Assembly: GCA_025362135.1 (NCBI GenBank)
Contig: JANYHZ010000281.1
Coordinates: 6,389-70,388, forward strand
Source: Betaproteobacteria bacterium
GTDB taxonomy: Bacteria > Pseudomonadota > Gammaproteobacteria > Burkholderiales > Usitatibacteraceae
Direction: 5' to 3'
DNA length: 64,000 bases
Position numbers and translations under genes: made by a program. The notes under the pieces are model-generated. The model did not search any database and was not told where the DNA came from. It saw only the letters and a program-made list of their open reading frames with translations. Numbering within the stretch: position 1 is the first letter of the stretch; each line of letters begins with the position of its first letter. Below are positions 37,207 to 64,000 of this stretch, one piece after another.

Positions 37207-37236
37207 GGCAGGTGACACGCGTCGCCTGCCTTTTTT
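37207..37236 (+). terminator. Rho-independent terminator/attenuator after rpsU
   Basis: GGCAGGTGAC-ACGC-GTCGCCTGCC forms a 10-bp stem with one G-U pair, followed by TTTTTT. Confidence 0.7.
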
Positions 37237-37253
37237 ATTTCTGGAGAAGCGAA

Positions 37254-37697: not shown

Positions 37698-37769
37698 AAG
37701 GCACAACCGTTACGGCGCAAACGCTGGCCCGCCCGCCGGGCCTTGATTTATCAGCGTCTATAATTGTTC

Positions 37770-39930: not shown

Positions 39931-41853
39931 ATGGCACGCAAACCCAAAAGCGCACGCGACACCGACGAATTTCCCTTCCCCAATTTCAAGGCGCTTAAAG
40001 CCGAGGCAAAGGTGGTGGATGTCGAGGTGCAACGGACGCGTCTGAAGACCTTGATCACGCTCGGTAAAGAGCGCGGCTTCCTGACTTACGCCGAAATCAA
40101 CGATCACCTGCCGGACATGGTCGACGCAGAGCAGATCGAAGCGATCACGACCACGTTCAACGAAATGGGCATTCAGGTTTATGACGAAGCGCCCGACGCC
40201 GAAACGCTATTGCTGAATGAGGCCGCACCCACGGTCGCCGATGACGAAGACGCCGCCGAAGAAGCCGCTCAGGCACTTTCCACAGTGGATTCCGAATTCG
40301 GCCGCACCACCGACCCGGTCCGCATGTACATGCGCGAAATGGGTTCGGTAGAGCTGCTCACGCGCGAAGGCGAAATCGAAATCGCCAAACGCATCGAAGA
40401 CGGTTTGAAGCACATGATTCACGCGATCTCGTCGTGCCCGACGACCATTCAGGACATCCTGAATCTCGCCGACATGGTGGAGAAAGACGAGCTGCGCATC
40501 GACGAAGTGATCGATGGCCTGGTCGATCCGAACGAAGATGAAGTCGCCGAAGCGGAACTCTCCGACGACGATATCGATGAGGAAGAGATCGAGGAAGAGG
40601 AAGACGAAGATGGCTCAATTGCGGCCGCCAACCTGGAGCAGCTGAAACAGGATTCTCTCGCGCGCTTCAATGCCATCCGCAAGCTCTACAAAAAAATGCG
40701 CAAGGCGCTGACCGAGAAAGGCCACCGTTCGCGCGCGTACAAAGATTTGCAGGAAGAACTATCCGCCGAACTGATGCAGATCCGCTTTTCCGCCAAGCAG
40801 GTAGAGCGGCTTTGCAACGGCTTGCGATCGCTGGTCGATTCCGTGCGTCAGCGCGAGCGCCATATTCAGGAATTATGCGTAAAAAATTCCAGCATGCCGC
40901 GGGCGCACTTTATCAAGTCGTTTCCCGGCAACGAAACGAATCTGAAATGGATCACTGAAGAAATTACCAACGGTAAAGGCTATGCCGCCGCGCTGGTGAA
41001 GTTCAAACCTTCGATCATCGAGGAGCAGGAATTTCTGATCAATTTGCAAAAAGAAGTCGGTCTGCCGGTCAAGGACCTGAAGGAAATTGCGCGGCAAATG
41101 AGCACGGGTGAGGCCAAGGCCCGCCGCGCCAAGCGCGAAATGATCGAGGCCAATTTGCGTCTGGTAATTTCGATCGCCAAGAAGTACACCAACCGCGGTT
41201 TGCAATTCCTCGACTTGATCCAGGAGGGCAATATCGGTTTGATGAAAGCCGTGGACAAGTTCGAATATCGCCGTGGTTATAAATTCTCGACCTATGCCAC
41301 ATGGTGGATTCGTCAGGCCATTACCCGCTCGATTGCCGATCAGGCCCGTACGATCCGTATTCCCGTGCACATGATCGAAACCATCAACAAGATGAACCGC
41401 ATTTCGCGGCAGATTTTGCAAGAGACCGGGCTTGAGCCGGATCCGGCGACGCTGGCCAAGAAAATGGAAATGCCGGAAGACAAAATCAGGAAGATTTTGA
41501 AAATCAGCAAAGAGCCGATCTCGATGGAAACGCCGATTGGCGATGACGATGATTCACACTTGGGCGATTTCATCGAGGACACACAGACGCTTGCACCGGA
41601 CGATTCGGCTCAGTACACGTCGCTGCGCGATGTCACCAAGGATGTACTGGATTCATTGACCCCACGCGAAGCGAAGGTATTGCGGATGCGCTTCGGTATT
41701 GAAATGAATACCGATCACACGCTGGAGGAAGTCGGCAAACAGTTCGACGTGACGCGGGAACGGATTCGCCAGATTGAAGCGAAGGCATTGCGCAAGTTGC
41801 GTCATCCGTCGCGCTCAGAGAAGCTGAAAAGTTTTTTGGAAACCGACAGTTGA
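39931..41853 (+). CDS. rpoD: RNA polymerase sigma-70 factor
   Basis: It has an acidic region-1 insert, region 2 ([56 protein letters not shown]) and region 4 ([28 protein letters not shown]). I trimmed the start to MARKPK. Confidence 0.97.
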
Positions 41854-41877
41854 TTTTCCATCCAGGCATCAAGAAAG

Positions 41878-41902
41878 TGGCCCGCATTGCGGGCCATTTT
41901 TT
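41878..41902. terminator. Rho-independent terminator after rpoD
   Basis: TGGCCCGC-ATT-GCGGGCCA is followed by TTTTTT. The T-run reaches the stop codon of the convergent gene. Confidence 0.7.
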
Positions 41903-44636
41903 AGCCGGGTTTGAGCTCGGGACTTAGCGCCAGCACCACTTTGAGTGTGTGATTTGGATCGTTACCCGGCTCTGAAATAAAACCAAGATGGGCCGCGAGT
42001 GACAGCATCCCGGCATTTGCCGATAAGACTGCACCATCCATCGAAACGTACCCCGCTGCGCGTGCGCAGACGATCAATGCTTTCATCAACGTAGTGCCGA
42101 CGCCACGGCCCTGCCATTCATCAGCGACTACGCAAGCGAACTCGATACTTACGCGATCTGCGTTAGGAAAATATCGTGCGACACCGACAATTTCACTGGT
42201 CGCCGGTACCAGCAGCAGCAACGCCATTTCGCGGTCGTAATCGAGTTGTGTAAAGCGCGCCATCATTTCTGCCGATAGTACAGAAACCGGATATTGAAAT
42301 CGCGAATAGCGCGAGGCAACCGAAAGCTTGGCAACGAATGCATGCTCGCGCTCGGCATCGTCCGGGCGAACGGGCCGCAACATCAATTGGCCGCCGTCGT
42401 TCAGCAAAATCGCCTGTTCCAATTCGATGGGATAGGGAAAGATCGCCATATGGCGGTAGCGATTGTCGCTAATGGGCAGTTTGGGATTGATGACGATACG
42501 CGCGTCCACAACAGACGCACCCCCCGGATGCACCAGCACCGGATTCAAATCCATTTCTTCGATCCACGGCAACAGGCAAGACATCATCGATACGCGTTGC
42601 AAGATGTCGATAATCGCGTTGTCATCGATGGCCGGCACATCGCGATACGCGTTTAGCAAACCGCGAATACGGGTCGAAGCCATCAACGTCGCCGCGAGGC
42701 TCGGGTTCAAAGGTGGCAGTGCAAGTGCCAAATCGTGCAGGGCTTCTACGGCGACACCACCAGCGCCAAATGCAATCACCGGGCCGAATACCGCATCGCG
42801 TTTCAGTCCAACAATGACTTCGCGCTGATGTGCAAAATTCATCATTGGCTGGATATTGACGCCAACGATGTGCGCTTCTGGTTTGATGAGTCCGACCTGC
42901 TCCATCATGTCATCGTAGGCATGCCCGACTTGTTTTGTATTTACCAGGTTCAGTCGTACGCCGCCTACGTCGCTTTTGTGTGTGATGTCAGGGGAATGAA
43001 TTTTCATCGCTACCGGATAGCCCATCTTTTTCGCAGCCGCTTGCGCTTCATCACGTGTAGCGGCTATTTCCCCGGCATTTACCGGCAATCCAAACGCAAC
43101 GAGTAACGATTTCGCTTCAATCTCGGTCAGCAAAGTGCGCTTCTGGCTTAACACCAGCGCGCGGATGCGCGTTGCCTCCGCCACCGCTTGTGCGGCATGG
43201 TGGAAATTCAATCCAGTGAACGCCGGTACCGATTCAAGCAACATTGCTTGATGCCGCTTGAAGCGAACCATAAAGGACATCGCCTCCACTGCATTTTCCG
43301 GCGTCATGAAGTTGGCAATTCCAGCCTTTTCCAGCATCGTCCGAGCCTCGATGATCGACGCGCCGCCGAGGAACGCGGTAAACAGTGGCTTTGCGTGCTG
43401 CTGCGCAATTGGAATGATCGCCGCGGCGGCAGCCTCCGGCGTCGTGACTCGCTGTGGACAGAACAATACCAGCGTCGCATCCACATTTGTGTCATCCATG
43501 ACCGCCTGGGTGCTCACTGAAAAACGCTCAGCTGTCGCATCACCGATAATGTCAACTGGATTTGCCCTTGACCAGTGTTCCGGCAATGCTGCATCCAGTA
43601 CTTCCATCGTACTCTTGGAGAGTTTGGCGAGTTCAAGTCGGTTATCGATTGCAACATCAGCGGCAACGACCCCAGGACCACCGCCGTTCGTGACAATCGC
43701 CAATCGCGCCCCGGTCGGACGTTTCGTCATAGTGAGTACGCGCGCCGCAGCAAATAACTGTAGTGAGCTCGATACGCGCACGGCACCCGAGCGCGCAAGT
43801 GCGGCATCAAAAACTGCATCACTGCCTGCCAGCGCGCCCGTGTGGCTGGTGACTGCCTTGGTGCCTGCGCTGTGACGCCCCGCTTTGAAAACCACCACCG
43901 GCTTTACCCGCGCGGCTGCACGCAGGGATGCGAGAAAGCCGCGCGCATCTCGTATGCCCTCGATGTATAACAATATGCTTTTCGTTTCGGCATCCTGAAC
44001 GAGAAAATCGAGCAGTTCGCCAAAGTCGAGATCAAGCGCGCCGCCCAGAGAGACGACGCTGGAAAAGCCTATCTCCGTCGTTGCCGCCCAATCCAGCAAC
44101 GCAGTACACACCGCGCCAGACTGTGAAATCAACGCAAGCGGACCTGGCCTGCAGGTGGCATTGGCGAAGGTGGCATTCAAGCCGATGGAGGGGCGCATGA
44201 TACCAACGCAATTGGGGCCGATCATACGCATACCACTGCGTTTCAGTTCGTTTTGAAGGAGCTGTGTGCGGATGCGCCCTTCTTTGCCGGATTCATTAAA
44301 GCCCGCAGAAAGGACCACAGCGTATTTAATGCCCTGGGTGCCCGCGACATGCATAACTTCAGCGACGGTGTTTGCTGGCGAGGCAATCACAATTAAATCT
44401 GGCACGGTCGGCAAGTCCTCGATAGAGCGATAACACGTGTCGCCAAATACGGTGCGATATTTAGGGTTCACCGCGTACAAGACGCCCCCATGCGCGCTCT
44501 GGTACTCGTTGCTGCGCATGTTTTCGAGCACAAAGCGGCCCAGCGCACCTTCGCGCTCCGAGGCACCGATCACCGCTACGCTACGCGGAACCAGAAGGTG
44601 ATGAAGATAATGGATCGACATCGCATTAGTATGCAT
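41901..44636 (-). CDS. Pat/PatZ-like protein lysine acetyltransferase (NDP-forming acyl-CoA synthetase-like domains + C-terminal GNAT)
   Basis: It has N-terminal CoA-binding (PRSVAVIGAS), IGPNCVG, ISQSGA, an ATP-grasp region (GYPVAMKIHSPDITHKSDVGGV) and a GNAT end (QGRGVGTTLM). It appears collinear with E. coli PatZ. Confidence 0.88.
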   Translation of the reverse strand: MHTNAMSIHYLHHLLVPRSVAVIGASEREGALGRFVLENMRSNEYQSAHGGVLYAVNPKYRTVFGDTCYRSIEDLPTVPDLIVIASPANTVAEVMHVAGTQGIKYAVVLSAGFNESGKEGRIRTQLLQNELKRSGMRMIGPNCVGIMRPSIGLNATFANATCRPGPLALISQSGAVCTALLDWAATTEIGFSSVVSLGGALDLDFGELLDFLVQDAETKSILLYIEGIRDARGFLASLRAAARVKPVVVFKAGRHSAGTKAVTSHTGALAGSDAVFDAALARSGAVRVSSSLQLFAAARVLTMTKRPTGARLAIVTNGGGPGVVAADVAIDNRLELAKLSKSTMEVLDAALPEHWSRANPVDIIGDATAERFSVSTQAVMDDTNVDATLVLFCPQRVTTPEAAAAAIIPIAQQHAKPLFTAFLGGASIIEARTMLEKAGIANFMTPENAVEAMSFMVRFKRHQAMLLESVPAFTGLNFHHAAQAVAEATRIRALVLSQKRTLLTEIEAKSLLVAFGLPVNAGEIAATRDEAQAAAKKMGYPVAMKIHSPDITHKSDVGGVRLNLVNTKQVGHAYDDMMEQVGLIKPEAHIVGVNIQPMMNFAHQREVIVGLKRDAVFGPVIAFGAGGVAVEALHDLALALPPLNPSLAATLMASTRIRGLLNAYRDVPAIDDNAIIDILQRVSMMSCLLPWIEEMDLNPVLVHPGGASVVDARIVINPKLPISDNRYRHMAIFPYPIELEQAILLNDGGQLMLRPVRPDDAEREHAFVAKLSVASRYSRFQYPVSVLSAEMMARFTQLDYDREMALLLLVPATSEIVGVARYFPNADRVSIEFACVVADEWQGRGVGTTLMKALIVCARAAGYVSMDGAVLSANAGMLSLAAHLGFISEPGNDPNHTLKVVLALSPELKPG

Positions 44637-52205: not shown

Positions 52206-54023
52206 ATGCGTGTTAGTTGGTTGCCGTATTGCTGGCGGTATCTGCTCCTGTCGCTATTTTGCGGGTGTTGCGTTGCGCCCAGTTTCGCCACAACAAAAAA
52301 CCAGCGAATCGAAAAATCCTCGTCGGGTCCACGTCCCGAGTTTCCGACCGCGCGTAACCAAAGTGTGGAGTTCCCGCCGCTGGGGCCCGGCAACTATCCT
52401 GTTGCCTGTTCCAATCTTGCTCACGATGTGGCGCGCATGAACCAGCTCGGCGGGTCGCTGGAAGATTATTGGTCCGGCACGAACGACCATTACGTCGGCG
52501 ATATCCTGCTCGAACCCGGTAGTACATTGAAGACCAGCCCGCTGGTGCCTGATAACGATCTTTATCCGGGGCGACGTAACTCGGTGGTGGAATTTGTCGT
52601 CATTAGCTGTTATCCAACCGACATCAGCAACAACCGTCCAGACTATCTGTTGCCGGACGGCCAACGCATTCCGCACATGCAACGGGGCGGTCAGGCGGCC
52701 GTTCTCGCCAGCCAACCCTGCACAGCGATTTTTCCCCTGCCGACAGGCTGCGGGCGCTGGCCGATGGTGGTGTTCTCCCACGGGCTGGCGGGGAGCCCAG
52801 TGGACGGCAAGTCGATTGATTTTCTGATGCGGCTGGCGAGCTACGGATATATCGTCGCCGCACCGTTTCATGGCGACGGTCGATTTTCGCGTCTGAGAGT
52901 CGAAGACCTTGGCGACCTTTTCTACATCATTCGCAACTTTGACCGCATCGTCGAACTACAGGCGATGCGACCGTTCAGCATGAAGTCTATGATCGACATG
53001 ATGCTCGCGCATTCTGATTTCGGCGCGCGAATTGACGCGACACGCATCGGTGGCATTGGTGGCAGCATGGGTGGCGCCACCATGACTTGGCTACTTGGCG
53101 CACAACTAACCGACAATTACCCGCGATTGACAGCCAAGTCAACGGTGCAAGACCCGCGCATCAAAGCAGCTGTGGGTTACGTTCCTTACGCCGGGCAGAA
53201 ATTTTTGCCCGCCTTCGGTGATGATAACGCGACAGCAAAAAATGTCACCGCGCCTTACCTTTCCATTTCCGGCACCAATGACACTACCGCGCCGATGTTC
53301 ATGATGGAGCAGGCCGTGAACAACTTCCGCGGCGCACGCTATCAAGTGGCACTGAGCGGCGTTGAACACACTTACTCGCCCAGCTACGCCAACGATGTGT
53401 TTGGCTGGACAATTCCGTTCTTTGCTGCGTACCTCAATGGCGACAAATCCGCGCTCGACCGATTGACGCGACAAAGGCACGTGAGCGGTGGTCTTGATGA
53501 TTATCTTCGCATCGACTACGTGCCGCCGTCGGCGCAGGTCAACGGCGAAGTACTGGTGGACGAGTTCTACAACACCCTCGTCAAGCGTCATTTCATCACC
53601 GCAAGCACGGCCGATAAAGATGCAATCGATCGCGGCAGCATGGGGGCGGGCTGGATAAGAACGGGTTATCAATTCAAGGCGTATACGCTACCTGGCCCTG
53701 CGGAAATGCGCGTCGCAACGCAGGCACCAGTGTGCCGATTTTATGCGCCGGTTCAGAATACACACTTCTTTTCAGCCGATAGCCGCGATTGTCAACTGCT
53801 GCGTGCAAGTCGTGCGTGGAATGATGAAGGAATCGCGTTCTGGATCAATAGTGCGTCGCGGACGAGTTGCGCGTCTGGCACGCTGGCCGTGACGCGGCTA
53901 TCGGACTCGCGCTGGCGCGAGAGCACATCGAACCATCGCTACACGACGAGCAATTCCCAAATTGAGGATATGAAAGCCAACGGCTGGTTTGAGGAGGGCG
54001 TGGTGATGTGCGCACCGTTGTAG
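52206..54023 (+). CDS. Secreted alpha/beta-hydrolase-like protein with three C-terminal DUF5648-like repeats
   Basis: It has a signal peptide, VVFSHGLAGS, and the nucleophile elbow GGSMGG. Three C-terminal repeats follow (53526-54020) of the form (R)FY...HF(Y/F)T...E/D...GW..EG. Confidence 0.6.
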   Translation: MRVSWLPYCWRYLLLSLFCGCCVAPSFATTKNQRIEKSSSGPRPEFPTARNQSVEFPPLGPGNYPVACSNLAHDVARMNQLGGSLEDYWSGTNDHYVGDILLEPGSTLKTSPLVPDNDLYPGRRNSVVEFVVISCYPTDISNNRPDYLLPDGQRIPHMQRGGQAAVLASQPCTAIFPLPTGCGRWPMVVFSHGLAGSPVDGKSIDFLMRLASYGYIVAAPFHGDGRFSRLRVEDLGDLFYIIRNFDRIVELQAMRPFSMKSMIDMMLAHSDFGARIDATRIGGIGGSMGGATMTWLLGAQLTDNYPRLTAKSTVQDPRIKAAVGYVPYAGQKFLPAFGDDNATAKNVTAPYLSISGTNDTTAPMFMMEQAVNNFRGARYQVALSGVEHTYSPSYANDVFGWTIPFFAAYLNGDKSALDRLTRQRHVSGGLDDYLRIDYVPPSAQVNGEVLVDEFYNTLVKRHFITASTADKDAIDRGSMGAGWIRTGYQFKAYTLPGPAEMRVATQAPVCRFYAPVQNTHFFSADSRDCQLLRASRAWNDEGIAFWINSASRTSCASGTLAVTRLSDSRWRESTSNHRYTTSNSQIEDMKANGWFEEGVVMCAPL

Positions 54024-54032
54024 CTGAGGCTG

Positions 54033-54569
54033 CTACTCGTCTTTCAGTATGGCATTGGCACGCTGTAACGCATCCGCGTCAACCGGTGCGACCGTTTGCA
54101 TCATTGCATTACGACGCCGATTCATTATCCACAGCAGGATCGCGCCGCCGATCAATAAAAAGAATGGGCCGAACCACAGAAGCCAGGTTTTGCCATCCAC
54201 CGGCGGACGGTAAAGCACGAAGTCGCCGTACCGCGCCCGCAGGTGTTCTTTTATTTCTTCGTTCGATTTGTTCTGGTCCGCCAGCAGACGGATTTCACGG
54301 CGCAAATCGCCCGCCAGTCCCGCAGGAGATTCGGCCAGCGTCTGGTTCTGGCAAACCAGACAGCGCAATTCGGTTTCGAGTTTCTTTAACCGAACCTCCA
54401 GTTCAGGCGACATCGGTGCCATCTCCGGGGTCGGCGTTTGCGCGTGAGCGGCGAACGCGCATGCTATGAGTATGAAAGTCAAGCACTGGCGCGCTTTCCA
54501 GGCTACAAATGCCCCAAACTCCGCGCCAGGTATTGCGTTTGCCAAAAATATCCGCGCGATGGCCTTCAT
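54033..54569 (-). CDS. ccmH: Cytochrome c-type biogenesis protein CcmH
   Basis: It has the LRCLVCQNQTLAES motif and a C-terminal TM helix. It forms an ATGA overlap with ccmG. Confidence 0.88.
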   Translation of the reverse strand: MKAIARIFLANAIPGAEFGAFVAWKARQCLTFILIACAFAAHAQTPTPEMAPMSPELEVRLKKLETELRCLVCQNQTLAESPAGLAGDLRREIRLLADQNKSNEEIKEHLRARYGDFVLYRPPVDGKTWLLWFGPFFLLIGGAILLWIMNRRRNAMMQTVAPVDADALQRANAILKDE

Positions 54570-55102
54570 GATTTCTTCAACTCACGAATAACCGGCAACA
54601 ATTTCTCGCTAAGCACCGTCGCGTCGATCGGGCCGGTATGCTTGTAGCGGATCATGCCGGTGGCGTCGATCACGAATGTTTCGGGCGCGCCGTACACGCC
54701 GAAATCGATGGCGGTGCGACCATCGAGATCACTTACTGAAGCCGTGTAGGGATCACCGAACTTTGCAAGCCACGCCTTGGCGTCTTCAGGTTTGTCTTTC
54801 CAGTTGAGCCCGATGATGGGCAACACTTGCGCTTTGGACAACTCATTGAGGAACGGATGCTCATAGCGGCACGATACGCACCAGGAACCCCAGACGTTAA
54901 GCAACCACACCTTGCCTTTCATATCTGCATTGCCCAATTTTTTTTCGGGCGAGTGGAGTTGCGCCAACGCGAATATGGGCGTGGGCTTATTGATCAGCGC
55001 AGAGGGAATTTCGCGCGGATTAAGCGACAAGCCGGTGTAAAGGAACCAGAGCAGCCCGAAAAAAATGGCCAGTGGCAGAAAGTAACGCCAGGTGCGAAGC
55101 AT
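54566..55102 (-). CDS. ccmG: Thiol:disulfide interchange protein DsbE/CcmG
   Basis: It has an N-terminal anchor, the WGSWCVSC active site, and GVYGAPETF. Confidence 0.92.
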   Translation of the reverse strand: MLRTWRYFLPLAIFFGLLWFLYTGLSLNPREIPSALINKPTPIFALAQLHSPEKKLGNADMKGKVWLLNVWGSWCVSCRYEHPFLNELSKAQVLPIIGLNWKDKPEDAKAWLAKFGDPYTASVSDLDGRTAIDFGVYGAPETFVIDATGMIRYKHTGPIDATVLSEKLLPVIRELKKS

Positions 55103-55126
55103 GTGTTTATTCCCGATGTCGTATGA

Positions 55127-57208
55127 CTATTGCGCTGGCTGCGAGCCGGCTTTCGCTGGCATCGCCTTGCGTTGTTTCACCTTGGCGGTTGCAGCCGCAG
55201 GGTTCGCTACCGGTGCGGCTGGCACATCCACTGGCGACGCCGTCGACGTGCGCACCTTCACCTTCAGGCGATAGCGGCGATCCAGCATTGCCAACAGGCC
55301 GCCAAGTGCCATGAAAATACAGCCAAACCAGATCCAGTTGATAAACGGTTTGACGTAAATACGCACCCCCCACGCCCCATCGGCTGCACCTTCGACCTGT
55401 TCGCCGAGTGCGACGTAGATATCGCGGGTAATGCCGGCGTTGATGGAGGCTTCGGTCATGACTTGGCCGGAGGCAAAATAGCGGCGTTTCTCTGGCGATA
55501 ACGTCGCCACCATTTTGCCGTCTTTGCTTACTTCAAAGATACCTTCTATGGCGGCGTAGTTTGGGCCGGGAACATCGCCGACTTTTACAAATTTGAATTG
55601 GTAGCCGCCCTCGGACACCGTTTGACCCGGTGCCATGCGCACATCGCGTTCGGTTTCGTAGCCCTTGACGAGGGTGACGCCGATGACGAACACGGCAATG
55701 CCGACGTGTGCCAGATGCATGCCGTAATAGCTGGAACGATTGGCGGCAATTCTGGCAAAGAAACTATCGCCTGGTGTTGCCTGATAACGATGCGCGAGTG
55801 CCGTCACACACGCGGCGATGATCCAGGTTGCCAGCAGTAATCCGCCGGCGACCATCGGCGTCCATTTACCCATCAGCAATGGGACTACGATCCCGGACGC
55901 CACCGCGATGCCGAATGCCCACTTCAATCGTGAGACGAGGTCCGGCAACGTGGCGTTACGCCAGCGTGAAATCGGCCCGACCGCCATCAGGAACAAGGCG
56001 GGTGCCATCAGCGGATAGAACACCGCTTCGAAATAAGGGGGGCCAACCGAAATCTTGCCGAGTTTCAATGCATCCAGAAACAAGGGATACAAGGTGCCCA
56101 ACACCACCGCCAACATGGCGACGACGAGCAGCACGTTGTTGGCGAGCAACAAGGATTCGCGGGATGTCGGCGAAAAATCGCGCGGCACTTTGCCCAAGCC
56201 CAATTGGGGGGCCCGCCACGCATACAACGCCAGCGAGCCGCCAATCACGACGACGAGGAAGGCGAGAATAAATACACCCCGTTTGGGATCCGTTGCGAAG
56301 GCATGAACCGACGTCAGCACACCGGAACGGACAAGGAATGTTCCGAGCAAGGAAAGCGAGAACGCGATGATCGCGAGCAACACCGTCCAGCTTTTGAAGA
56401 CACCGCGTTTTTCCGTGACCGCAAGCGAGTGAATAAGTGCGGTGCCCACCAGCCACGGCATGAATGACGCATTTTCCACCGGGTCCCAGAACCACCAGCC
56501 GCCCCAGCCTAATTCGTAATACGCCCATGCTGAACCGAGCGCAATCCCAATGGTGAGGAAACACCACGCAGCTGTGGTCCACGGACGAGACCAGCGCGCC
56601 CAGGTGGCGTCAAGTTTGCCGCCGATCAGCGCCGCCACCGCAAACGCGAAGGCCACCGAGAAGCCAACGTAGCCCATATAAAGCATCGGCGGGTGGTAGA
56701 TCATGCCGGGATCCTGCAACAGCGGATTCAGGTCGCGCCCTTCGATAGCCGCGGGCAGCAGGCGATCAAACGGGTTGGAGGTCAGCAGCATGAACAGCAG
56801 AAAGCCGACCATGATCATGCCCATCACGGCCAGCACGCGGGCGATCACCTCCTGCGGAAGATTGCGACTGAAAATCGATACCGCAAACGTCCAGCCCGCC
56901 AGCATCAGTACCCACAACAGCAGTGAGCCCTCGTGCGAACCCCAGGAGGCGGTAATGCGGTAGTACACCGGTAATTTGGTATTTGAATTTGCCGCGACGT
57001 TCTGCACTGAAAAATCACTGCTAATAAAAGAATAGAGCAGACAAGCAAAGGCAAAGACGACGAACACAAACTGGCCGTGCGCCAAGGGTCGGGCGAGCGA
57101 CAGCAGGCGTTGGTCGCCTCGGTACGCACCGACCAGCGGCAAAATGGCCATCGATAGCGCAAGGCAAAGCGCGAGAATGAGTGAAAACTGGCCTAGTTCT
57201 GGAACCAT
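55127..57208 (-). CDS. ccmF: Cytochrome c haem lyase subunit CcmF
   Basis: It is polytopic, has the WWD domain WGGWWFWDPVENAS, and conserved histidines. I trimmed the start to MVPELGQFSL. The C-terminus is an A/P/K-rich tail. Confidence 0.95.
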   Translation of the reverse strand: MVPELGQFSLILALCLALSMAILPLVGAYRGDQRLLSLARPLAHGQFVFVVFAFACLLYSFISSDFSVQNVAANSNTKLPVYYRITASWGSHEGSLLLWVLMLAGWTFAVSIFSRNLPQEVIARVLAVMGMIMVGFLLFMLLTSNPFDRLLPAAIEGRDLNPLLQDPGMIYHPPMLYMGYVGFSVAFAFAVAALIGGKLDATWARWSRPWTTAAWCFLTIGIALGSAWAYYELGWGGWWFWDPVENASFMPWLVGTALIHSLAVTEKRGVFKSWTVLLAIIAFSLSLLGTFLVRSGVLTSVHAFATDPKRGVFILAFLVVVIGGSLALYAWRAPQLGLGKVPRDFSPTSRESLLLANNVLLVVAMLAVVLGTLYPLFLDALKLGKISVGPPYFEAVFYPLMAPALFLMAVGPISRWRNATLPDLVSRLKWAFGIAVASGIVVPLLMGKWTPMVAGGLLLATWIIAACVTALAHRYQATPGDSFFARIAANRSSYYGMHLAHVGIAVFVIGVTLVKGYETERDVRMAPGQTVSEGGYQFKFVKVGDVPGPNYAAIEGIFEVSKDGKMVATLSPEKRRYFASGQVMTEASINAGITRDIYVALGEQVEGAADGAWGVRIYVKPFINWIWFGCIFMALGGLLAMLDRRYRLKVKVRTSTASPVDVPAAPVANPAAATAKVKQRKAMPAKAGSQPAQ

Positions 57209-57230
57209 CGTGATTGCCTCGGTGCTAGAT

Positions 57231-57719
57231 TCAATTGGGTTTCGGTGCTTGTGTAGGGACTGCTTTTTGTCCGGCAAACATACTGCCGTCGATCGATTTG
57301 CCGGCGTTCTTCAGCGCTTCTGCGGCTTCGGGAGGCATGTAATTCTCATCGTGCTTGGCCAACACCTCTGCCGCCCGAAACACGCCATCTTGTCCAATCT
57401 TGCCTTGCGCGACGACGCCTTTGCCTTCCTTGAACAAGTCGGGAAGAATACCGGTGTAGGTCACGGGAATGGTCTTGGCGGTATCGGTGACGTCAAATGT
57501 CACCGTAAGCCCATCGGGTTGGCGCTTCACGCTACCCGCGGTCACTAACCCGCCAATGCGGAAGGTACGGTCAACGGGCGCTTTGTTCTCGGCAACCTGG
57601 GAGGGCGTAAAGAAAAACACCAGATTTGAATTGAAGGCACGCAATACAAGGGTCACGGCAACGCCAATCACCAATAACCCAAGCGCAATCCACATGAAAC
57701 GACGGTGTCTTGCTTTCAT
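57231..57719 (-). CDS. ccmE: Cytochrome c maturation haem chaperone CcmE
   Basis: It has an N-terminal anchor, [17 protein letters not shown], and the haem-binding AKHDENYMP. Confidence 0.95.
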
Positions 57720-57895
57720 TGCGCAGGTCTTTTCGCTTTATCAGCCATCAGTTCTTCCCCAATTTCGGCTTGCGCGCGTTTTCCGCGCAAGCGCACCAGC
57801 GTAATTTCCAGCATGATCGCGACCACGAATGCACCGAATGAGCCCCACATATAGAACGCGCGCGCATCCATGGAAAAAAATGCTGCCCAGTTCAT
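57716..57895 (-). CDS. ccmD: Haem exporter protein CcmD
   Basis: This 59-aa single-TM protein ([33 protein letters not shown]) lies between ccmC and ccmE with ATGA overlaps at both ends. The track hides it inside a longer ORF (57716-58123). Confidence 0.75.
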
Positions 57896-58650
57896 GATCC
57901 TGCCACAATGTTGGTTGCAGATAACGTGTTTGCCACCCGGGTGCTGTGGCTTCGGCCGCGTTCCCGCTCGAGGATGATGGCACGAACACGCACCAGTGAA
58001 ATCGTGATCGCGTAAGTCCAGCAGGCTATTGCCATGATCAGCATCGCCCACAGCATTATCGCGGCCATTTTCGGCGAGGCGGTCACCGATACCGATGCGC
58101 CCTGATGCAGTGTATTCCACCATTTCACGGAAAAGTAAATGATAGGCACATTGACCGATCCAACGATGACCAGCAGCGCCCCCGCTTTGTCCGCACGCTT
58201 TTTATCTTCAATGGCGTTGATAAGCGCAAGGTAGCCGATGTACAGAAACAAAAGTATCAGCGTCGACGTCATGCGCGCGTCCCACGCCCAGTACGTGCCC
58301 CATGTCGGCTTTCCCCAAAGGGCACCAGTCCAAAGCGCGAGCGCGGTGAAGATTGCGCCGGTGGGTGCCAGCGCCTCCATCATCATTGCGGACAGGCGGG
58401 TATTGAAAGTAAGCGCCATCACGCCATACATCGCCATCGCCAGATAAATAACCATCGCCATCCAGGCCGCCGGCACATGGATGAAGATGATGCGGTAAAC
58501 CTCGCCTTGCTGAAAATCCTCGGGTGCGACGAACAAGCCCAGGTATAGACCGATAACAGCAAAAATGGCGGCCAGCGCGGCGAACCACGGTACTAGTTTG
58601 CCTGCGAGGGGATAGAACGCAGTGGGGGAGGAATATTTGAATAGGCTCAT
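57892..58650 (-). CDS. ccmC: Haem exporter protein CcmC
   Basis: It has the WWD motif WGKPTWGTYWAWDARMT and six TM helices. Confidence 0.95.
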   Translation of the reverse strand: MSLFKYSSPTAFYPLAGKLVPWFAALAAIFAVIGLYLGLFVAPEDFQQGEVYRIIFIHVPAAWMAMVIYLAMAMYGVMALTFNTRLSAMMMEALAPTGAIFTALALWTGALWGKPTWGTYWAWDARMTSTLILLFLYIGYLALINAIEDKKRADKAGALLVIVGSVNVPIIYFSVKWWNTLHQGASVSVTASPKMAAIMLWAMLIMAIACWTYAITISLVRVRAIILERERGRSHSTRVANTLSATNIVAGS

Positions 58651-58654
58651 TGCA

Positions 58655-59374
58655 TCAATCCAGAGAAATCTTCAACGCTGCCGCAACCGCAAACGGCACT
58701 GCCAGTCCAGCCAACAACACAATCGCACCAAGCAGCGACAGATTTGCTGAAAAATCGATAGAGACCATTGCTTGTTCGACGGCACCGGCACCAAAAATGA
58801 GCACCGGAATGTATAGGGGAAGTACCAGCAACGCCAACAATATGGATCCGCCGCGTACGCCTAGCGTCAACGCCGCGCCAATTGCGCCAATCATTGACAA
58901 TACTGGCGTTCCCAATATCAGACTTACACACAGTACAGCAAGTTCACCCGACGCAAGCCCAAACTGCAATCCGAGCAAGGGTGAGAGCACCGCCAAGGGT
59001 AAACCCGTCATCAGCCAATGCGCCACGATTTTGCCGGCGACGATTGTTGGCAATGGATACACCGACAATGCCAGCTGTTCCAGCGTGCCGTCAGCGTGAT
59101 CATTGGCGAACATTCTGGGCAGGGTCAGCAACACCGACAATAGCGCCGCCACCCACACAACGCCCGGGGCGATGCGTTTCAGCAATGCAGATTCAGGACC
59201 TATCGCGAGCGGAAACAAACTGACTACAACAACAAAAAATGCTAACGCCTGTATTGCTTCCCCTTTTGAGCGCGCCGCGAGTCTTGCGTCGCGCGCCATA
59301 GCCACAATAAAACCGCGCTCAGGTTGAAATACCGGCGAGTCAATCTGGGTGAGCGAGTTCAGAGTGGCGGTCAT
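58655..59374 (-). CDS. ccmB: Haem exporter permease CcmB
   Basis: It is a polytopic protein of about 220-240 aa between ccmA and ccmC, and has the FPLAIGPE-type motif. Confidence 0.9.
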   Translation of the reverse strand: MTATLNSLTQIDSPVFQPERGFIVAMARDARLAARSKGEAIQALAFFVVVVSLFPLAIGPESALLKRIAPGVVWVAALLSVLLTLPRMFANDHADGTLEQLALSVYPLPTIVAGKIVAHWLMTGLPLAVLSPLLGLQFGLASGELAVLCVSLILGTPVLSMIGAIGAALTLGVRGGSILLALLVLPLYIPVLIFGAGAVEQAMVSIDFSANLSLLGAIVLLAGLAVPFAVAAALKISLD

Positions 59375-60063
59375 CGCACCACTTCTATTCGTGAATCCAG
59401 ATTCATTTCTTTTGCTCGCGATGCGATATCCAAGGCGAGATGCGTTGCGATACAGGCAATTCCGCCGCGACCAAGATGGCGGCCGATGAGCTCGGTGAAC
59501 AGCAAGACGCCCTCACTATCTAACGCATTGGTAGGCTCATCGAGCAGCCAAAGAGGTTTGTGATGCGCATGGGAAAGCGCCAGCCACAATCGCGCCAGTC
59601 CGATGCGGCGCTTCTGCCCCTGCGAGAGTCGTCGCGCCAGCACGTGACGCCGATCAATCAAGCCGACCTTTTCAAGTGCCTCAAGTTGCGCGCTGGGCTC
59701 AAGGGAAATACCGTCGATCGACAACGCGTCGGCGAGGTTCTCGTGCGCGGTGAAATCGTCCTTGAGCGCGTTGTTATGGCCAAGATAAAGCGCAACGCTA
59801 CGCCACGTTGCCGACAGCGCCCTCAAAGGCTCGCCGTTCCACAAGACGACACCTGCATCTGGCAGCGTCAGGCCCGCAAGCATCCGTAGGAGACTCGTCT
59901 TGCCCGAGCCATTCGCGCCCCGCAAGATCAATGCCTGGCCTGACGCAATGCCGAACGATATATTGTCAATAATCGTGCGAGAGCCGCGTTCCAGCCGCAG
60001 TCCGCTGCCCCTCAAAGTATCTGCAGCGGTCTGGGTTGAATTCGAGACCGAGGATGCTGCCAT
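59371..60063 (-). CDS. ccmA: Cytochrome c biogenesis ABC ATPase CcmA
   Basis: It has Walker A (GANGSGKTS), the signature LSQGQKRR, and Walker B (LWLLDEP). Confidence 0.9.
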   Translation of the reverse strand: MAASSVSNSTQTAADTLRGSGLRLERGSRTIIDNISFGIASGQALILRGANGSGKTSLLRMLAGLTLPDAGVVLWNGEPLRALSATWRSVALYLGHNNALKDDFTAHENLADALSIDGISLEPSAQLEALEKVGLIDRRHVLARRLSQGQKRRIGLARLWLALSHAHHKPLWLLDEPTNALDSEGVLLFTELIGRHLGRGGIACIATHLALDIASRAKEMNLDSRIEVVR

Positions 60064-61454
60064 CAGGGTGCAACTTTGCCTATGGTCACGGTAACGCCCG
60101 ACGCACCCGGTTTCACCACATCGGACAGTCCCGACAAGTCACCGGGTTGAAGTTGCGCATTCCCGGATTTTGAAACTCGCGCTTCGATGACCACTTCGGC
60201 GAACGAGGACAGGTTGACGCCGGGGGCCATCGCCATCGCGTCGGTAAGTTCGAATGCAACTGGGAAAGCATTGGCTTTCGGTGCGGGCACCCGCATGACC
60301 GCGAGCGGCATACGCGGCCCCTCCTTGGCGCGAGCGAAGACGAATAACGTATCGCCAGAGGCTAACTTGCCCGCAACATCGGGCGCGATGACAACTTTCC
60401 CTGTTACCTTGACGCCTGGTTTTGAAGCACTATCCTTCCCCGCATTACTGCTGGCCACTTGCGGGCTTTGTGCCAAAGGCGATGCTGCGGGCGCAGGCGC
60501 GCCTGCAACGGCATCAAGTTTCGTCGTCTTTACTTCTGCGATGATGGTCTCGACTTCGCGATAATCAGCGGAATCCTTTGGCACCAGTGTTTTCAATTTT
60601 TCCCAATAGACTAAGGAAGCAGGGCGATTGCCCATCCGCAGCTCAGCGGTGCCGGCCAGCGCAAGCGCTTTCATGTGGTTCGGATCCAGTTTCAATGCCT
60701 GCTTGATCAGCGCATATGGCTTGCCCTCAAATCGTCCCTGCTGGGTCATCACGGCGGCGTCGGCATAATCCGCCAAGAGCTGTGGATCGTTGGGCGTGAG
60801 TGCAGCCGCCCGCTCAAATGCGGCGCTCGCTTCGGCGTAGCGTCCCAATGCATTCTGCGATCTTGCCAACAGGATCCAGCCGCGCGGATCGGTCGGGTTC
60901 TGCTGCATTTTTTGCGAAAGACTGTCCACCATGGCCAGAATTTGTTTATCTGACATCGGAGGCTCTTCGCCCGGCTTGGTATTTTCTGTGTGCCCGATTG
61001 GCATACCGGTAGAGGTGGGTGCAATCCCAGCCATTTCTATGGCACGCGGCGCGCCGAGCGTCCCGTAGAGCACCACCGCGCTTAATGGCATTGCAACCGC
61101 GAGCAGCGCGACCAGCCACCATGGGTGCTTGTTTACCGCCAGTGTGGGGGCCGAAACCATTTGTTGTTCGGGCACTTCGTCGACCAAGCGCGCGGACAGT
61201 TCGCCCAGCGCCGCGGTGTGCTCTGCTTCGCTGATCGCACCGCGCGCTAATTCTTCATCGAGTTCGCGCCGTTGCGACTGGAAGATCGTGACGTTACTGC
61301 GCGCACCGGAAACCGGTTCGGTCGGCGTTTTCTCACGCACCAGCGGTATCACCACAAATGCCAACGCGACAACCAACATCAACAACGCAACGATTGAAAA
61401 AATAAGCACGGTCTGGTCAGTCAGGTAAGGTATGGCGCGCGCGACCGCAGCCAA
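60063..61454 (-). CDS. ccmI: Cytochrome c-type biogenesis protein CcmI/CycH (TPR)
   Basis: It has two N-terminal TM helices flanking a charged loop (QRRELDEELARGAISEAE), a TPR-like middle, and a conserved C-terminal beta-domain (TLFVFARAKEGPRMPLAV). Its stop overlaps the ccmA start by 1 nt. Confidence 0.8.
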   Translation of the reverse strand: MAAVARAIPYLTDQTVLIFSIVALLMLVVALAFVVIPLVREKTPTEPVSGARSNVTIFQSQRRELDEELARGAISEAEHTAALGELSARLVDEVPEQQMVSAPTLAVNKHPWWLVALLAVAMPLSAVVLYGTLGAPRAIEMAGIAPTSTGMPIGHTENTKPGEEPPMSDKQILAMVDSLSQKMQQNPTDPRGWILLARSQNALGRYAEASAAFERAAALTPNDPQLLADYADAAVMTQQGRFEGKPYALIKQALKLDPNHMKALALAGTAELRMGNRPASLVYWEKLKTLVPKDSADYREVETIIAEVKTTKLDAVAGAPAPAASPLAQSPQVASSNAGKDSASKPGVKVTGKVVIAPDVAGKLASGDTLFVFARAKEGPRMPLAVMRVPAPKANAFPVAFELTDAMAMAPGVNLSSFAEVVIEARVSKSGNAQLQPGDLSGLSDVVKPGASGVTVTIGKVAP

Positions 61455-61775
61455 TATCGCACTAAATTATAGCCTGCGCCAGTGCGAGGATACGGATAGT
61501 GAAGCGGAACGACGTCCATGCCATCCGGCAGCGGTACTCGCGAAATTTTCGATTTGACTAAATACCAAAAACGGTTAGACTCAAGTCCGCGTTTGTCGAA
61601 GGGCTTTTGCTTGGGCAAACTAGAATAAGTGTTGCGAAGTTGTTTAGTACTCGTGGGCGGAAATGAAGGCCAGGCTTGATCAGCGTACTGCTGATGTTCC
61701 GGGCTTTTAAACCGCATGTCGACAGGCGTCAAGGGGTGGCCTGTTGAAAAATAGCCTTAGGGGGCCACAGTCATC

Positions 61776-62606
61776 ATGCGTCATCGCACTATTCTCGAAT
61801 ATCGTGATTACCGATATTTAAAGCTGGCGGTGCTTATCGTCGTAGCGGTTATTTTTGCCTACGGCTGGTACGCATATCCTCTCGGACATTACGGCGGCAC
61901 ACCGCTCGGCTACACGCTGGGCACGATCGGTGCACTGCTCATCTTCTGGCTTATGTGGCTGGGCGTACAGAAACGCCGCTATCGCACTACCGGCGACGTG
62001 AAGGGCTGGCTATCGGCCCACATCTATTTGGGTACCTCGTTGCTGGTCATCGCGACACTCCACGCCGCCTTTCAGGTCGGCTGGAACGTACACACCCTCG
62101 CTTATGTTTTGATGATAATCGTGATCGCGTCAGGTTTCTATGGCGTGTATACCTATCTGCGATTCCCCGGCCTGATGACCGAAAATCTTGCCGAGGATAC
62201 GCTCGAGAGTCTCACGCTAAAAATTGCCGACATTGATCGCGAGGCGCGTCGACTCGCGCTCGGCATGTCCGATGAGGTTAACCAGGCGGTGCTCGCATCG
62301 ATTCAGAAAACGCGCATTGGCGGAGGCGTCTACGCGCAATTGCGCGAGCAAGTCTCCAGCTGCCCAACGACATCTGCGGTCAAGCTTATCAAATCCCGTT
62401 CGGGGACGGTGAAAGGCGATGCGGCGCGCAAGCATCAGGACCTGTACGGCATGATGTTGCGCAAGGAGCGTCTGGTTAGGCGTGCACGGATAGATATTCG
62501 CTATAAGGCAATCATGGATATATGGCTTTTTTTCCATGTGCCATTATCCGTCGCGTTGCTCGCGGCACTGGTGGCGCATATCGTCGCCGTTTTCTTTTAT
62601 TGGTAG
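61776..62606 (+). CDS. 5-TM membrane protein with two H-x13-H pairs (putative dihaem b-type cytochrome)
   Basis: The predicted TM helices lie at about aa 16-35, 46-64, 78-99, 107-128 and 249-273. His82/His96 fall in TM3 and His254/His268 in TM5. I cannot name a family from memory. Confidence 0.6.
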   Translation: MRHRTILEYRDYRYLKLAVLIVVAVIFAYGWYAYPLGHYGGTPLGYTLGTIGALLIFWLMWLGVQKRRYRTTGDVKGWLSAHIYLGTSLLVIATLHAAFQVGWNVHTLAYVLMIIVIASGFYGVYTYLRFPGLMTENLAEDTLESLTLKIADIDREARRLALGMSDEVNQAVLASIQKTRIGGGVYAQLREQVSSCPTTSAVKLIKSRSGTVKGDAARKHQDLYGMMLRKERLVRRARIDIRYKAIMDIWLFFHVPLSVALLAALVAHIVAVFFYW

Positions 62607-62612
62607 GCATTG

Positions 62613-64000
62613 ATGAAAACCAAACTTGCGACCATTACGCGTAACAAGAAAGGCCAACCTGCGAGCACCGAACAGACGGTGGTCGCAGAGACACTCCGCA
62701 TTGGGCGCGGTGCAGATTGCAAGTTACACCTGTCCGATCCACGCATTGCGCTGTTCCATGCCGAAGTCATTTGTGGAGTAGACGGCGTATCGTACATCGA
62801 GGCACGCGGCGGTGTGGTGAGCGTGGATGGGAGCTTCGAGAGCGCGGCAACACTGAAAACCGGGCAGCGGATACTGGTCGGCCCGTTTGAATTAATTGTC
62901 CTGCCGCCGCAGACCGATGTGGACCTTGCACTGAGCGTGGAACTCATCGATCCGCTGAAAGACGACCTTGAAGAGGTAAAGAGTCACGTCAAAGCGGGCC
63001 TGAAATCGACGTGGTTATCCAAGCGAACCTTCAGTTGGCTGGCGGGCGCTGCGGTATTCCTTGTTTTTCTTGCATGGCCGGTACTCAACGCACTCGAGCG
63101 CGGGCATGGAAAGGATACAACCAAGCCCGTACTGGCTGCAGACGCGTCCTGGGATGTCGGGCCACTGGCAAGCGCGCACGCAAGCTTTGGCAGTAACTGC
63201 AGCTCGTGCCACCAGCAACCATTCGTGCACGTAACCAACGGCGCGTGTGAAGACTGCCACAAGAAAATCGGCTGGCATTTTGCCCTTGATACCAAGGAAG
63301 CCAAGGCGGTGCATACAGGGGTATTCGGCGACACCCGCTGCTCGTCCTGCCACCGCGATCACAAGGGCGCGAATGGTTTGGTGAGAACGGATTCGAGGCT
63401 CTGCACCGATTGTCACCAAAACTTGAAATCCCGGCACCCACAGACAGGCGTTGTCGATGTTGCGGAATTCACCAAAGATCACCCACCTTTCAAGGTGTCG
63501 ATGCTGGTGCCCGGAAAGACCGGTGCCGCTGCGCTCGTCCGTATTGCGCAGGACGACAAAACGCGTTACGTCGAAGCCTCGGGCCTGAAATTCCCGCACG
63601 ACGTTCACATGAGTGCGAAAGGCCTGCGCGGCCCTAATGGCAAGGCGCAAATGGAGTGTAAAAACTGCCATGTGCCGGATGAGACCAGTACTCGTTTCAA
63701 GCCGGTGACGATGGGTGAACATTGCCAGTCCTGCCATTCGCTCGAATTCGAACCGAAGGCGACGACGCGCCAGGTGCCGCACGGTAAGGTGGCCGATGTC
63801 ATGGCAACCTTGCAGGAATATTATGCGCAGGCAGCACTGACCGATGCAGCGATCGACGTGGTGCTCGAAGATGGCATCAAACGGCCTGGCCAGCGCGTTG
63901 GGGAGACCAAGCGCGAAGCAGCGCTTTCCTGGGCGAACAGCAAAGCGGAAAAAATTACCCAGGAACTATTTGAAATACGCGTTTGTTTTGAGTGCCATCA
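62613..64000 (+). CDS. FHA-like domain + TM + multihaem cytochrome c (3' end outside window; ORF absent from supplied track)
   Basis: My own translation from ATG 62613 gives 462 codons with no stop to the window edge. The N-terminus reads TLRIGRGADCKLHLSDPRIALFHAEVI...LKTGQRILVGPFELIV. A TM segment lies at 63027-63089. CXXCH motifs start at 63198, 63246, 63339, 63402, 63657, 63723 and 63984. Confidence 0.8.
   Translation, partial: MKTKLATITRNKKGQPASTEQTVVAETLRIGRGADCKLHLSDPRIALFHAEVICGVDGVSYIEARGGVVSVDGSFESAATLKTGQRILVGPFELIVLPPQTDVDLALSVELIDPLKDDLEEVKSHVKAGLKSTWLSKRTFSWLAGAAVFLVFLAWPVLNALERGHGKDTTKPVLAADASWDVGPLASAHASFGSNCSSCHQQPFVHVTNGACEDCHKKIGWHFALDTKEAKAVHTGVFGDTRCSSCHRDHKGANGLVRTDSRLCTDCHQNLKSRHPQTGVVDVAEFTKDHPPFKVSMLVPGKTGAAALVRIAQDDKTRYVEASGLKFPHDVHMSAKGLRGPNGKAQMECKNCHVPDETSTRFKPVTMGEHCQSCHSLEFEPKATTRQVPHGKVADVMATLQEYYAQAALTDAAIDVVLEDGIKRPGQRVGETKREAALSWANSKAEKITQELFEIRVCFECH

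Follow-up and report, generated by a model that had tools for sequence, protein, structure and literature searches.

An FHA-fold domain anchored to a decahaem cytochrome c: a putative transmembrane redox module in Usitatibacteraceae and other bacteria

The window analysed in this study is a stretch of 64,000 nucleotides from a Betaproteobacteria bacterium of the Usitatibacteraceae (contig JANYHZ010000281.1 of assembly GCA_025362135.1). At its right-hand edge lie the first 462 of the 600 codons of a gene (62613..64000, forward strand) that encodes an FHA-fold domain, a single transmembrane (TM) helix and a decahaem cytochrome c, referred to below as the FHA-cytochrome. The architecture is real, though not unprecedented, and a conserved transmembrane redox module is a better reading of it than the link with phospho-signalling put forward in an earlier note on this DNA. 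All of the features described below are on the forward strand unless stated otherwise.

The gene at the edge of the window

Translation from the ATG at 62613 gives a frame of 462 codons that is free of stops up to the edge of the window. The protein database holds a 600-amino-acid (aa) protein (P0001) which is 100% identical to the window protein across all of its 462 aa, and a second contig (L001), collinear with the window and showing 98.4% DNA identity to it over positions 52619-64000, carries the gene to its stop codon. This contig was used in place of the source contig. There is strong support for a type-II (N-in/C-out) inner-membrane protein of 600 aa, of which the open reading frame (ORF) of the window encodes the N-terminal 77%.

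The start codon is backed by a conserved N-terminus and, in many homologous loci, by in-frame stops located two to five codons upstream. The ratio of nonsynonymous to synonymous substitution rates (dN/dS) against close relatives is approximately 0.02-0.04 for both the FHA and the cytochrome parts, with synonymous sites being saturated in the FHA comparison. The values for the cytochrome part of loci L004-L009 were dropped, because indels follow the helix and make the ungapped comparison invalid; those retained refer to the FHA domain and linker, together with the values for L003. Mean pairwise identity is 0.49 for the FHA domain versus 0.60 for the cytochrome part. The strong purifying selection acting on both halves shows that the antisense ORFs 62597-62947, 62984-63334 and 63015-63782 are shadows of the real gene; they are the only frames listed for 62613-64000 because the ORF lister omits frames that leave the source sequence.

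Domain architecture of the FHA-cytochrome

The first 110 residues (62613..62942) constitute a cytoplasmic FHA-fold domain, recognized from structure prediction, structure and profile searches, residue statistics and dN/dS. In an AlphaFold2 (AF2) model built from 109 sequences this region is an 11-strand beta-sandwich with pLDDT values of 81-93. Each of the first 50 PDB matches returned by Foldseek is an FHA domain (E down to 1.8e-5, target-normalised TM-score of approx. 0.7-0.8); they include OdhI, CT664, GarA, DgcB and Rv0020c, the first three being the best, and the closest structural neighbours are the FHA domains of OdhI and GarA in complex with 2-oxoglutarate dehydrogenase (8p5x, 6i2q). 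A profile search of PDB sequences also matched GarA/OdhI-type FHA domains, over residues 13-101. The model, the Foldseek matches and the profile matches together establish the FHA fold.

The Pfam scores of the window protein lie below the respective cut-offs, with 20.1-20.4 bits for FHA (PF00498; cut-off 20.7) and 26.6 bits for its best FHA-type match, Yop-YscD_cpl (PF16697; cut-off 33.2). The FHA model is matched by all 32 family members searched at E<=0.01 (best 1.6e-7), and a member of one subfamily (P0401) exceeds the cut-off with 27.3 bits. A type III secretion role suggested by the Yop-YscD_cpl match was rejected, given that score and the lack of secretion genes in the neighbourhoods examined. 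When a large protein database was searched with a profile of the N-terminal domain alone, only eight fragments of the same family were recovered, and no other architectures containing this FHA subtype.

The domain is followed by a cytoplasmic linker (residues 111-138, 62943..63026), in which Thr133 is nearly invariant among the homologues and which ends, at the membrane face, in a conserved K/R-rich T-W-L-S-K-R motif. The single TM helix (residues 139-160, 63027..63092) was placed by hydropathy, charge bias and the AF2 model. Its hydrophobic segment, TFSWLAGAAVFLVFLAWPVL (residues 139-158), reaches a hydropathy peak of 2.09 and is the sole segment of this kind in the protein; the AF2 helix spans residues 138-162, and there are five K/R in the 17 residues before the helix versus a net charge of +1 after it. 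A signal peptide is absent, since the N-terminus is a folded FHA domain. All of the CXXCH motifs lie C-terminal to this N-in/C-out anchor, which therefore puts the haem sites in the periplasm, where System I can reach them.

The periplasmic part contained in the window (residues 161-462, 63093..63998) begins with a variable linker and continues with seven CXXCH motifs, at residues 196, 212, 243, 264, 349, 371 and 458 (63198-63212, 63246-63260, 63339-63353, 63402-63416, 63657-63671, 63723-63737 and 63984-63998, respectively). Three more, at residues 504, 527 and 545, lie beyond the edge and bring the total to ten. All 20 Cys residues located C-terminally to the helix fall within these motifs. 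The ten motifs are invariant in 109 homologues, as are ten other His residues (189, 222, 250, 290, 329, 332, 390, 496, 499 and 552), enough for bis-His ligation of ten haems. The Cytochrom_c3_2 model scores 46.4 bits with the window part and 52.6 with the full-length protein (cut-off 25), and Cytochrome_C7 scores 55.1 bits with the latter (cut-off 24.8). The results strongly support a periplasmic layout of (i) a c3-like four-haem part, (ii) a three-haem middle part containing a long helical insert, and (iii) a c7-like three-haem end; to judge from its sequence, the protein is a class III (c3/c7-type) multihaem cytochrome c with predicted covalently bound haems.

Two other assignments were considered and rejected. 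The MtrA/DmsE decahaem family (TIGR03508) scored 18 bits versus a cut-off of 192.2, and the PDB match to MtrA (6r2q_A) was weak and local (E 6e-4). As to NapC/NirT, Cytochrom_NNT matched neither the window protein nor 32 homologues, and the first CXXCH lies approximately 35 residues past the helix.

Much of what the earlier note had read from the letters agrees with these data. The frame is open for the 462 codons that it gave, and the restriction of the ORF track to the three antisense frames, which it had pointed out, is a listing artefact. The FHA-like strings that it quoted from the first approx. 100 residues do occur in the sequence, it was right that the canonical S-R and S.NGT motifs are absent, and the FHA-like character that it ascribed to this region is borne out by the modelled structure and by the Pfam matches of the 32 members searched. 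The same holds for the K/R-rich stretch preceding a single N-in hydrophobic helix, for the placement of the CXXCH region outside the cytoplasm, for the relationship with c3/c7 cytochromes that it had proposed to check, and for the exact positions of the seven haem sites in the window. Its haem count was correct for the window, whereas the full protein has ten sites; the seventh does not begin a fourth doublet, as the note had supposed, for the next site is 46 residues beyond residue 458.

Partner genes and operon layouts

The gene directly upstream (61776..62606), whose stop codon lies 6 nt before the ATG of the FHA-cytochrome gene, encodes a 276-aa membrane protein, a putative dihaem b subunit. 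It has five TM helices (5-TM) and a 128-aa cytoplasmic helical insert, which carries invariant Thr residues. Four His residues are invariant, H82 and H96 on TM3 and H254 and H268 on TM5, with a spacing of 14 residues within each pair, and the positive-inside topology places one pair near each face of the membrane. This arrangement looks like the classic dihaem b pattern. The protein scores 25 bits with PF01292 (Ni_hydr_CYTB, prokaryotic cytochrome b561; cut-off 30.1), a model that gives weak matches with 36 of 40 homologues of the partner (best 7.7e-8). In all of the approximately 70 loci that reach far enough, the 5-TM gene is located directly upstream of the cytochrome gene, and this linkage spans Burkholderiales, Lysobacteraceae, Acidobacteriota, Alphaproteobacteria and Moraxellaceae. 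That the two genes belong to one operon is strongly supported.

In the window, the 276-aa gene ends in a TAG that is in frame with the start codon of the cytochrome gene and two codons away from it (62604-62615, TAG GCA TTG ATG). Programmed read-through is not suggested, because the two genes often differ in frame at other loci.

The third member of the conserved gene set encodes a cytoplasmic protein of approximately 800 aa (flavo-FeS), composed of a thioredoxin-reductase-like FAD/NAD(P)H part, two cyclic-nucleotide-binding (cNMP-binding) domains and 4Fe-4S clusters. Its domain matches are Pyr_redox_2/3, cNMP_binding (twice) and ferredoxin-type Fer4; no CCG domain was found. The gene was present in each of the 48 loci that extend far enough. 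A distant subfamily (L083/L085, L073, L076, L079) has a tight three-gene operon with the order flavo-FeS, 5-TM, FHA-cytochrome.

In the lineage of the window, the cytochrome and flavoprotein genes are separated by inserted genes for four exported proteins, and the flavo-FeS gene stands at the end of the operon. The inserted proteins are (i) a lipoprotein with three HbpS-like domains, (ii) a protein of approximately 615 aa (L004:13692-15533) with no Cys residues and no family match, which ends in ...NLLLTY and occupies the same position in 61 loci, (iii) a decahaem protein of approximately 1,280 aa with an LVIVD beta-propeller (L004:15535-19386), and (iv) a tetrahaem c554-like protein. In all 61 loci the ~615-aa protein has a C-terminal Tyr or Phe, which resembles the end signal of outer-membrane beta-barrels; the gene cluster may therefore include a porin-cytochrome conduit. 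Searches of PDB sequences with the ~615-aa, the ~1,280-aa and a ~478-aa downstream protein returned no match.

Two further observations concern the ~1,280-aa protein. It shows a 52-aa local match (E 4e-19) to ExtM, a cytochrome of a selenite/tellurite reduction operon, and it also carries a choice-of-anchor B domain.

Size, spread and variants of the family

A scan of 1.84 billion representatives, clustered at 50% identity with a threshold of E<=1e-30, revealed at least 1,269 clusters of the FHA-cytochrome family. Almost all of the top 150 are 545-620 aa long and cover the whole profile. A species-level genome scan gave 181 carriers, and all of the 80 listed are metagenome-assembled genomes. 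Most of the carriers listed belong to Burkholderiales (Usitatibacteraceae, Casimicrobiaceae) and to Arenimonas/Lysobacteraceae, and some to Acidobacteriota, Moraxellaceae and Alphaproteobacteria. The family is also represented in an isolate, Zavarzinia sp. CC-PAN008.

Several variants of the architecture were found. The subfamily member P0401, which is 38% identical to the window protein end to end, has nine CXXCH motifs and one CX4CH. In this protein and in P0255, P0275, P0340 and P0352, the sixth haem site is a CX4CH (CQQSGCH or CQQSRCH), which is probably why one paper counts a "nonahaem" and another a ten-haem protein. A homologue of 484 aa that lacks the FHA domain (L086:7070-17455) is separated by 98 nt from a 5-TM gene. 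Another apparently FHA-less member, P0280, was set aside as a contig-edge fragment.

The cluster containing the 484-aa homologue looks partly decayed, with a shortened propeller cytochrome (874 aa) and an inserted reverse-strand gene. P0262 (694 aa) has extra residues (1-119) before the FHA domain with a PilZ-like motif (NISRGGMFV), a hint of a cytoplasmic cyclic di-GMP input. One contig of 54.6 kb (JANYDB010000076.1) carries two complete clusters in opposite orientation (L026 and L027), whose cytochromes are 58% and 60% identical to the query.

Genomic context

Upstream of the 5-TM gene, and divergent from it, lies a System I cytochrome c maturation operon, ccmIABCDEFGH (54033..61454, reverse strand), identified by Pfam/NCBIfam matches, gene calls on L001 and ORFs. 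It comprises ccmI (60063-61454), ccmA (59371-60063), ccmB (58655-59374), ccmC (57892-58650), ccmD (57716-57895), ccmE (57231-57719), ccmF (55127-57277), ccmG (54566-55102) and ccmH (54033-54569). The adjacency of ccm and the cytochrome module is kept in Burkholderiales loci. On its far side, ccmH adjoins a gene for a 605-aa protein (52206-54023) with DUF5648 and a weak PAF-acetylhydrolase-like match, found in the same position in L001, L002 and L080.

The gap between ccmI and the 276-aa gene contains a 103-aa ORF on the reverse strand (61421-61732), which corresponds to a 98-aa gene without a family match on L001 and is uncalled on L002. It also contains a sigma-70-like promoter match (61554..61581) of weak consensus, in a scan that gave two matches versus 1.1 expected; promoter and terminator predictions in this region were near the chance level. 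An Rfam scan of 61000-64000 revealed no RNA family. The housekeeping genes tsaD, dnaG and rpoD lie 20 kb upstream (35756-44636), which indicates that the cluster is chromosomal and not part of an obvious mobile element.

A proposed transmembrane redox module

On balance, with a modest lean in its favour, we take the window protein to be the cytochrome c subunit of a transmembrane redox module working like Hmc, Tmc or CbcL, with the FHA domain as its cytoplasmic docking or regulatory piece. From gene linkage and motifs we infer a module of three parts: the FHA-cytochrome, the 276-aa 5-TM protein and the ~800-aa flavo-FeS protein.

The cytochrome and 5-TM genes would be co-transcribed, with the flavo-FeS protein supplying the third subunit, and the nearby System I Ccm proteins would attach the haems c. 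Each His pair of the 5-TM protein would hold one haem b, the two being near opposite faces of the membrane. Electrons could then pass from NAD(P)H and FAD through Fe-S clusters to the haem b on the cytoplasmic side, to that on the periplasmic side and on to the ten haems c, or in the reverse direction. In the lineage of the window the chain would continue to the four exported proteins, possibly as a porin-cytochrome system.

The most speculative step concerns the FHA domain. Having lost the Ser and Asn that contact phosphothreonine (pThr), and with an Arg-rich loop surface under strong purifying selection, it may serve for docking or gating, either independently of phosphorylation or in some other non-canonical way, by keeping the flavo-FeS subunit or else the 5-TM protein's cytoplasmic insert in place on the complex, much as the FHA domains of GarA and OdhI bind enzymes; their binding to 2-oxoglutarate dehydrogenase is phospho-independent.

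Several points weigh against this proposal. In the lineage of the window the flavo-FeS gene lies approximately 8 kb downstream, outside the window, and is known only from relatives encoding 83-88% identical proteins (such as L004, L006 and L009). The association of the three proteins is deduced from gene linkage, and a physical complex is putative. The membrane part of the AF2 model of the 5-TM protein is of low confidence, its best Foldseek match has an E-value of 0.44, and a PDB profile search gave only a chance ribosomal match; because these structure and PDB searches yielded no match, we infer the haem b from the His spacing and the sub-threshold Pfam similarity. The proposal allows electron flow in either direction. 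Given the FHA-less homologue, the redox core may be able to do without an FHA domain. Finally, Arg32, Arg44 (invariant among close homologues) and the near-invariant His49 could form a phosphate-binding pocket, which would make phospho-dependence possible.

A more far-reaching version of the proposal, which we put forward only tentatively, is that the three proteins represent an unrecognised and very widespread transmembrane electron-transfer complex, linking the NAD(P)H pool, with the quinones bypassed, to periplasmic and perhaps extracellular haem wires, and that the FHA domain is an adaptor that docks or gates the cytoplasmic subunit. The entry and exit of extracellular electron transfer at the inner membrane are known for a few model organisms (CymA, ImcH, CbcL), which leaves a gap for iron oxidisers and for most environmental bacteria. 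The FHA-cytochromes are a large and uncharacterised family, present in several phyla and always tied to the same two partners. Should these three proteins form a complex, cytoplasmic NAD(P)H and periplasmic haem wires would be joined by a new route, and the FHA fold would gain a new structural role; an FHA adaptor would be a use of this fold not known in respiration. In iron oxidisers of the Gallionellaceae type, such a complex could be the missing inner-membrane step of extracellular electron uptake or release. The function of the module is now directly testable, because there are cultured carriers (Zavarzinia sp. CC-PAN008 and the Gallionellaceae isolates; PMC10734462) and a minimal three-gene operon.

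Alternative explanations

The strongest competitor holds that the FHA domain is a true pThr reader: a Hanks-type kinase and a PP2C phosphatase with genes elsewhere in the genome would act on a partner or on the protein's own linker, thereby switching the haem wire or reporting its redox state. We judge this unlikely, if well worth weighing. The pThr pocket of FHA domains is formed by Gly, Arg, Ser, His and Asn (G69, R70, S85, H88 and N107 of Rad53 FHA1). The FHA fold of the family is real, and part of this pocket is kept: in the close set of 109 homologues, Gly31-Arg32, Asp42 and Arg44 are invariant and His49 nearly so, and among 144 wider representatives (at <=50% identity) Gly31 is found in 144, Asp42 in 122, the phosphate-contacting Arg32 in 136 and His49 in 112, and Arg44, on the same loop, in 98. 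Moreover, Thr133 of the linker and the invariant Thr residues in the cytoplasmic insert of the 5-TM partner could be phosphosites, and some subfamily members exceed the Pfam FHA cut-off. The other pocket positions speak against a reader. The Ser that contacts pThr is present in only 11 of the 144 representatives, the most frequent replacements being Ala (70), Pro (16) and Leu (12); Leu takes the place of the usual next Arg in 111, and the Asn of NGT is not conserved, so that of the five residues Gly-Arg and His remain.

The search for the corresponding enzymes gave a negative picture as well. The annotation of five loci (L001, L002, L080, L081, L082) shows neither a Pkinase nor a PP2C gene within 10 kb, and tblastn with approximate PknB and PstP queries, which is of low sensitivity, produced no match in the window and 82 loci. 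The earlier note had proposed an electron-transfer component regulated by, or reporting to, cytoplasmic phospho-signalling, and had suggested looking for co-occurring Ser/Thr kinases or PP2C phosphatases; with the pThr Ser and Asn lost and no such genes seen near the loci, that part of it is unsupported. What stands of the note as a whole is a real gene with an FHA N-terminus, an N-in anchor and periplasmic haems; the phospho-link does not, and the partner genes, the full set of ten haem sites and the Gallionellaceae precedent had escaped it.

A second and somewhat less probable explanation is that the cytochrome works by itself as a CymA/NrfH-like quinol dehydrogenase or quinone reductase, with its helix contacting the quinone pool, its haem chain leading to redox partners in the periplasm or outer membrane, and the neighbouring proteins and the FHA domain as accessories. 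The overall shape, one N-terminal helix followed by periplasmic haems, is indeed alike, and this function has been proposed for the Ferrigenium nonahaem protein (bioRxiv 10.64898/2026.01.22.701106). It is at odds with three features of the family: none of 32 members matches NapC/NirT, the first haem site is set ~35 residues past the helix behind a variable linker of low model confidence, and the gene is always accompanied by that of the 5-TM four-His protein. The first haem of NapC/NirT proteins, by comparison, lies at the membrane.

Improbable, in our opinion, is a redox sensor, with the haems in the periplasm as its input and the FHA domain as the relay to the cNMP-binding flavoprotein or to further effectors in the cytoplasm. 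Regulatory roles are typical of FHA domains, the cytoplasmic partner has two cNMP-binding domains, and P0262 places a PilZ-like N-terminal domain before its FHA domain. On the other hand, ten bis-His haems, a putative dihaem b, FAD and several Fe-S clusters exceed the needs of sensing, the operon encodes further multihaem proteins, and the annotated loci contain no conserved kinase, GGDEF or DNA-binding output domain in the cluster. An artefact or pseudogene (an ORF open by chance, two genes fused by a frameshift or a chimeric assembly), for which the sole favouring point is that the window edge cuts the gene, is excluded by the identical 600-aa protein in the database, the collinear second contig, dN/dS far below 1 and the more than 1,000 homologous clusters, with an end-to-end architecture common to nearly all of the top 150.

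Comparison with known systems

No characterised respiratory or signalling family matched the architecture, as the earlier note had remarked, and the transmembrane redox module proposed above is best described by comparison with several systems. The Hmc and Tmc complexes of sulfate reducers combine a c3-type multihaem cytochrome in the periplasm with a cytochrome b subunit in the membrane and an Fe-S protein in the cytoplasm. The cross-membrane logic is the same, and the haem domain of the FHA-cytochrome matches c3/c7 models. The differences are that (i) the cytoplasmic subunit has FAD/NAD(P)H, cNMP-binding and ferredoxin-type domains and is not an HdrD-like CCG protein, (ii) the membrane subunit belongs to a distinct 5-TM family and not to NarI/HdrE-type cytochromes b, (iii) the cytochrome is itself anchored in the membrane and bears an FHA domain, and (iv) the hosts are aerobic or facultative Proteobacteria and Acidobacteriota. 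We therefore regard the resemblance to Hmc/Tmc as functional only, and would not count the module as a member of that group.

CbcL and ImcH of Geobacter, as well as CymA and NrfH, are likewise multihaem cytochromes c anchored in the inner membrane and feeding periplasmic haem chains. CbcL fuses a b561/HydC-like dihaem b domain with a nine-haem c domain; here, the same pairing would be encoded by two genes. In contrast to these systems, the FHA-cytochrome has no NapC/NirT signature and the b-type part is separate, with sub-threshold similarity; neither an FHA domain in the cytoplasm nor a dedicated flavo-FeS partner there is known from any of them. The path from cytoplasmic NAD(P)H through flavin and two stacked b haems (His pairs 14 residues apart on two helices) to an acceptor outside the cytoplasm recalls NOX enzymes and ferric reductases. 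The parallel is purely one of analogy, for the sequences are unrelated, and the module would differ in dividing the path among several proteins, in including Fe-S clusters along it and in having a haem c wire as the acceptor.

For the cytoplasmic domain, the parallels are YscD/EscD, scaffold proteins of the inner-membrane ring in type III secretion, which also carry an FHA fold on the cytoplasmic side of a single-pass inner-membrane protein, in line with Yop-YscD_cpl as the best FHA-type match, and the enzyme-binding GarA/OdhI, in which the canonical Ser and Asn are kept, in contrast to the FHA-cytochrome family.

The closest precedents come from iron oxidisers of the Gallionellaceae. A literature search found FHA-multihaem cytochromes only in two reports, both with in-silico or transcript data, and nothing on LVIVD- or HbpS-multiheme proteins or on cytochromes of the Usitatibacteraceae. 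Hoover et al. (2023) listed, without comment, "cluster 403, Forkhead-associated protein, 10 haem motifs" in 27 of 87 Gallionellaceae iron oxidisers (PMC10734462), and a 2026 preprint described a nonahaem FHA cytochrome ("NHC") of Ferrigenium straubiae beside 5-TM and 4Fe-4S proteins, a combination called unreported (bioRxiv 10.64898/2026.01.22.701106). The likeness to NHC and cluster 403 extends to the cytoplasmic FHA domain, the one helix, the 9-10 haem motifs and the 5-TM and 4Fe-4S neighbours. The operon of the P0401 subfamily, moreover, adjoins an SHP/cytochrome c''-like gene, in agreement with the gene neighbourhood published for Ferrigenium. Since this subfamily, 38% identical to the window protein, reproduces the neighbourhood of NHC (compared here by its description), the window protein very probably belongs to the same family. 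The lineage of the window differs from Ferrigenium NHC in its ten plain CXXCH motifs, the four inserted exported proteins, the flavo-FeS gene at the end of the operon and the ccm operon next door. What the present analysis adds to these reports is how large and widespread the family is, its constant core of three genes, the signature of four His in the 5-TM protein, the systematic loss of the pThr pocket and the expanded operon in the lineage of the window.

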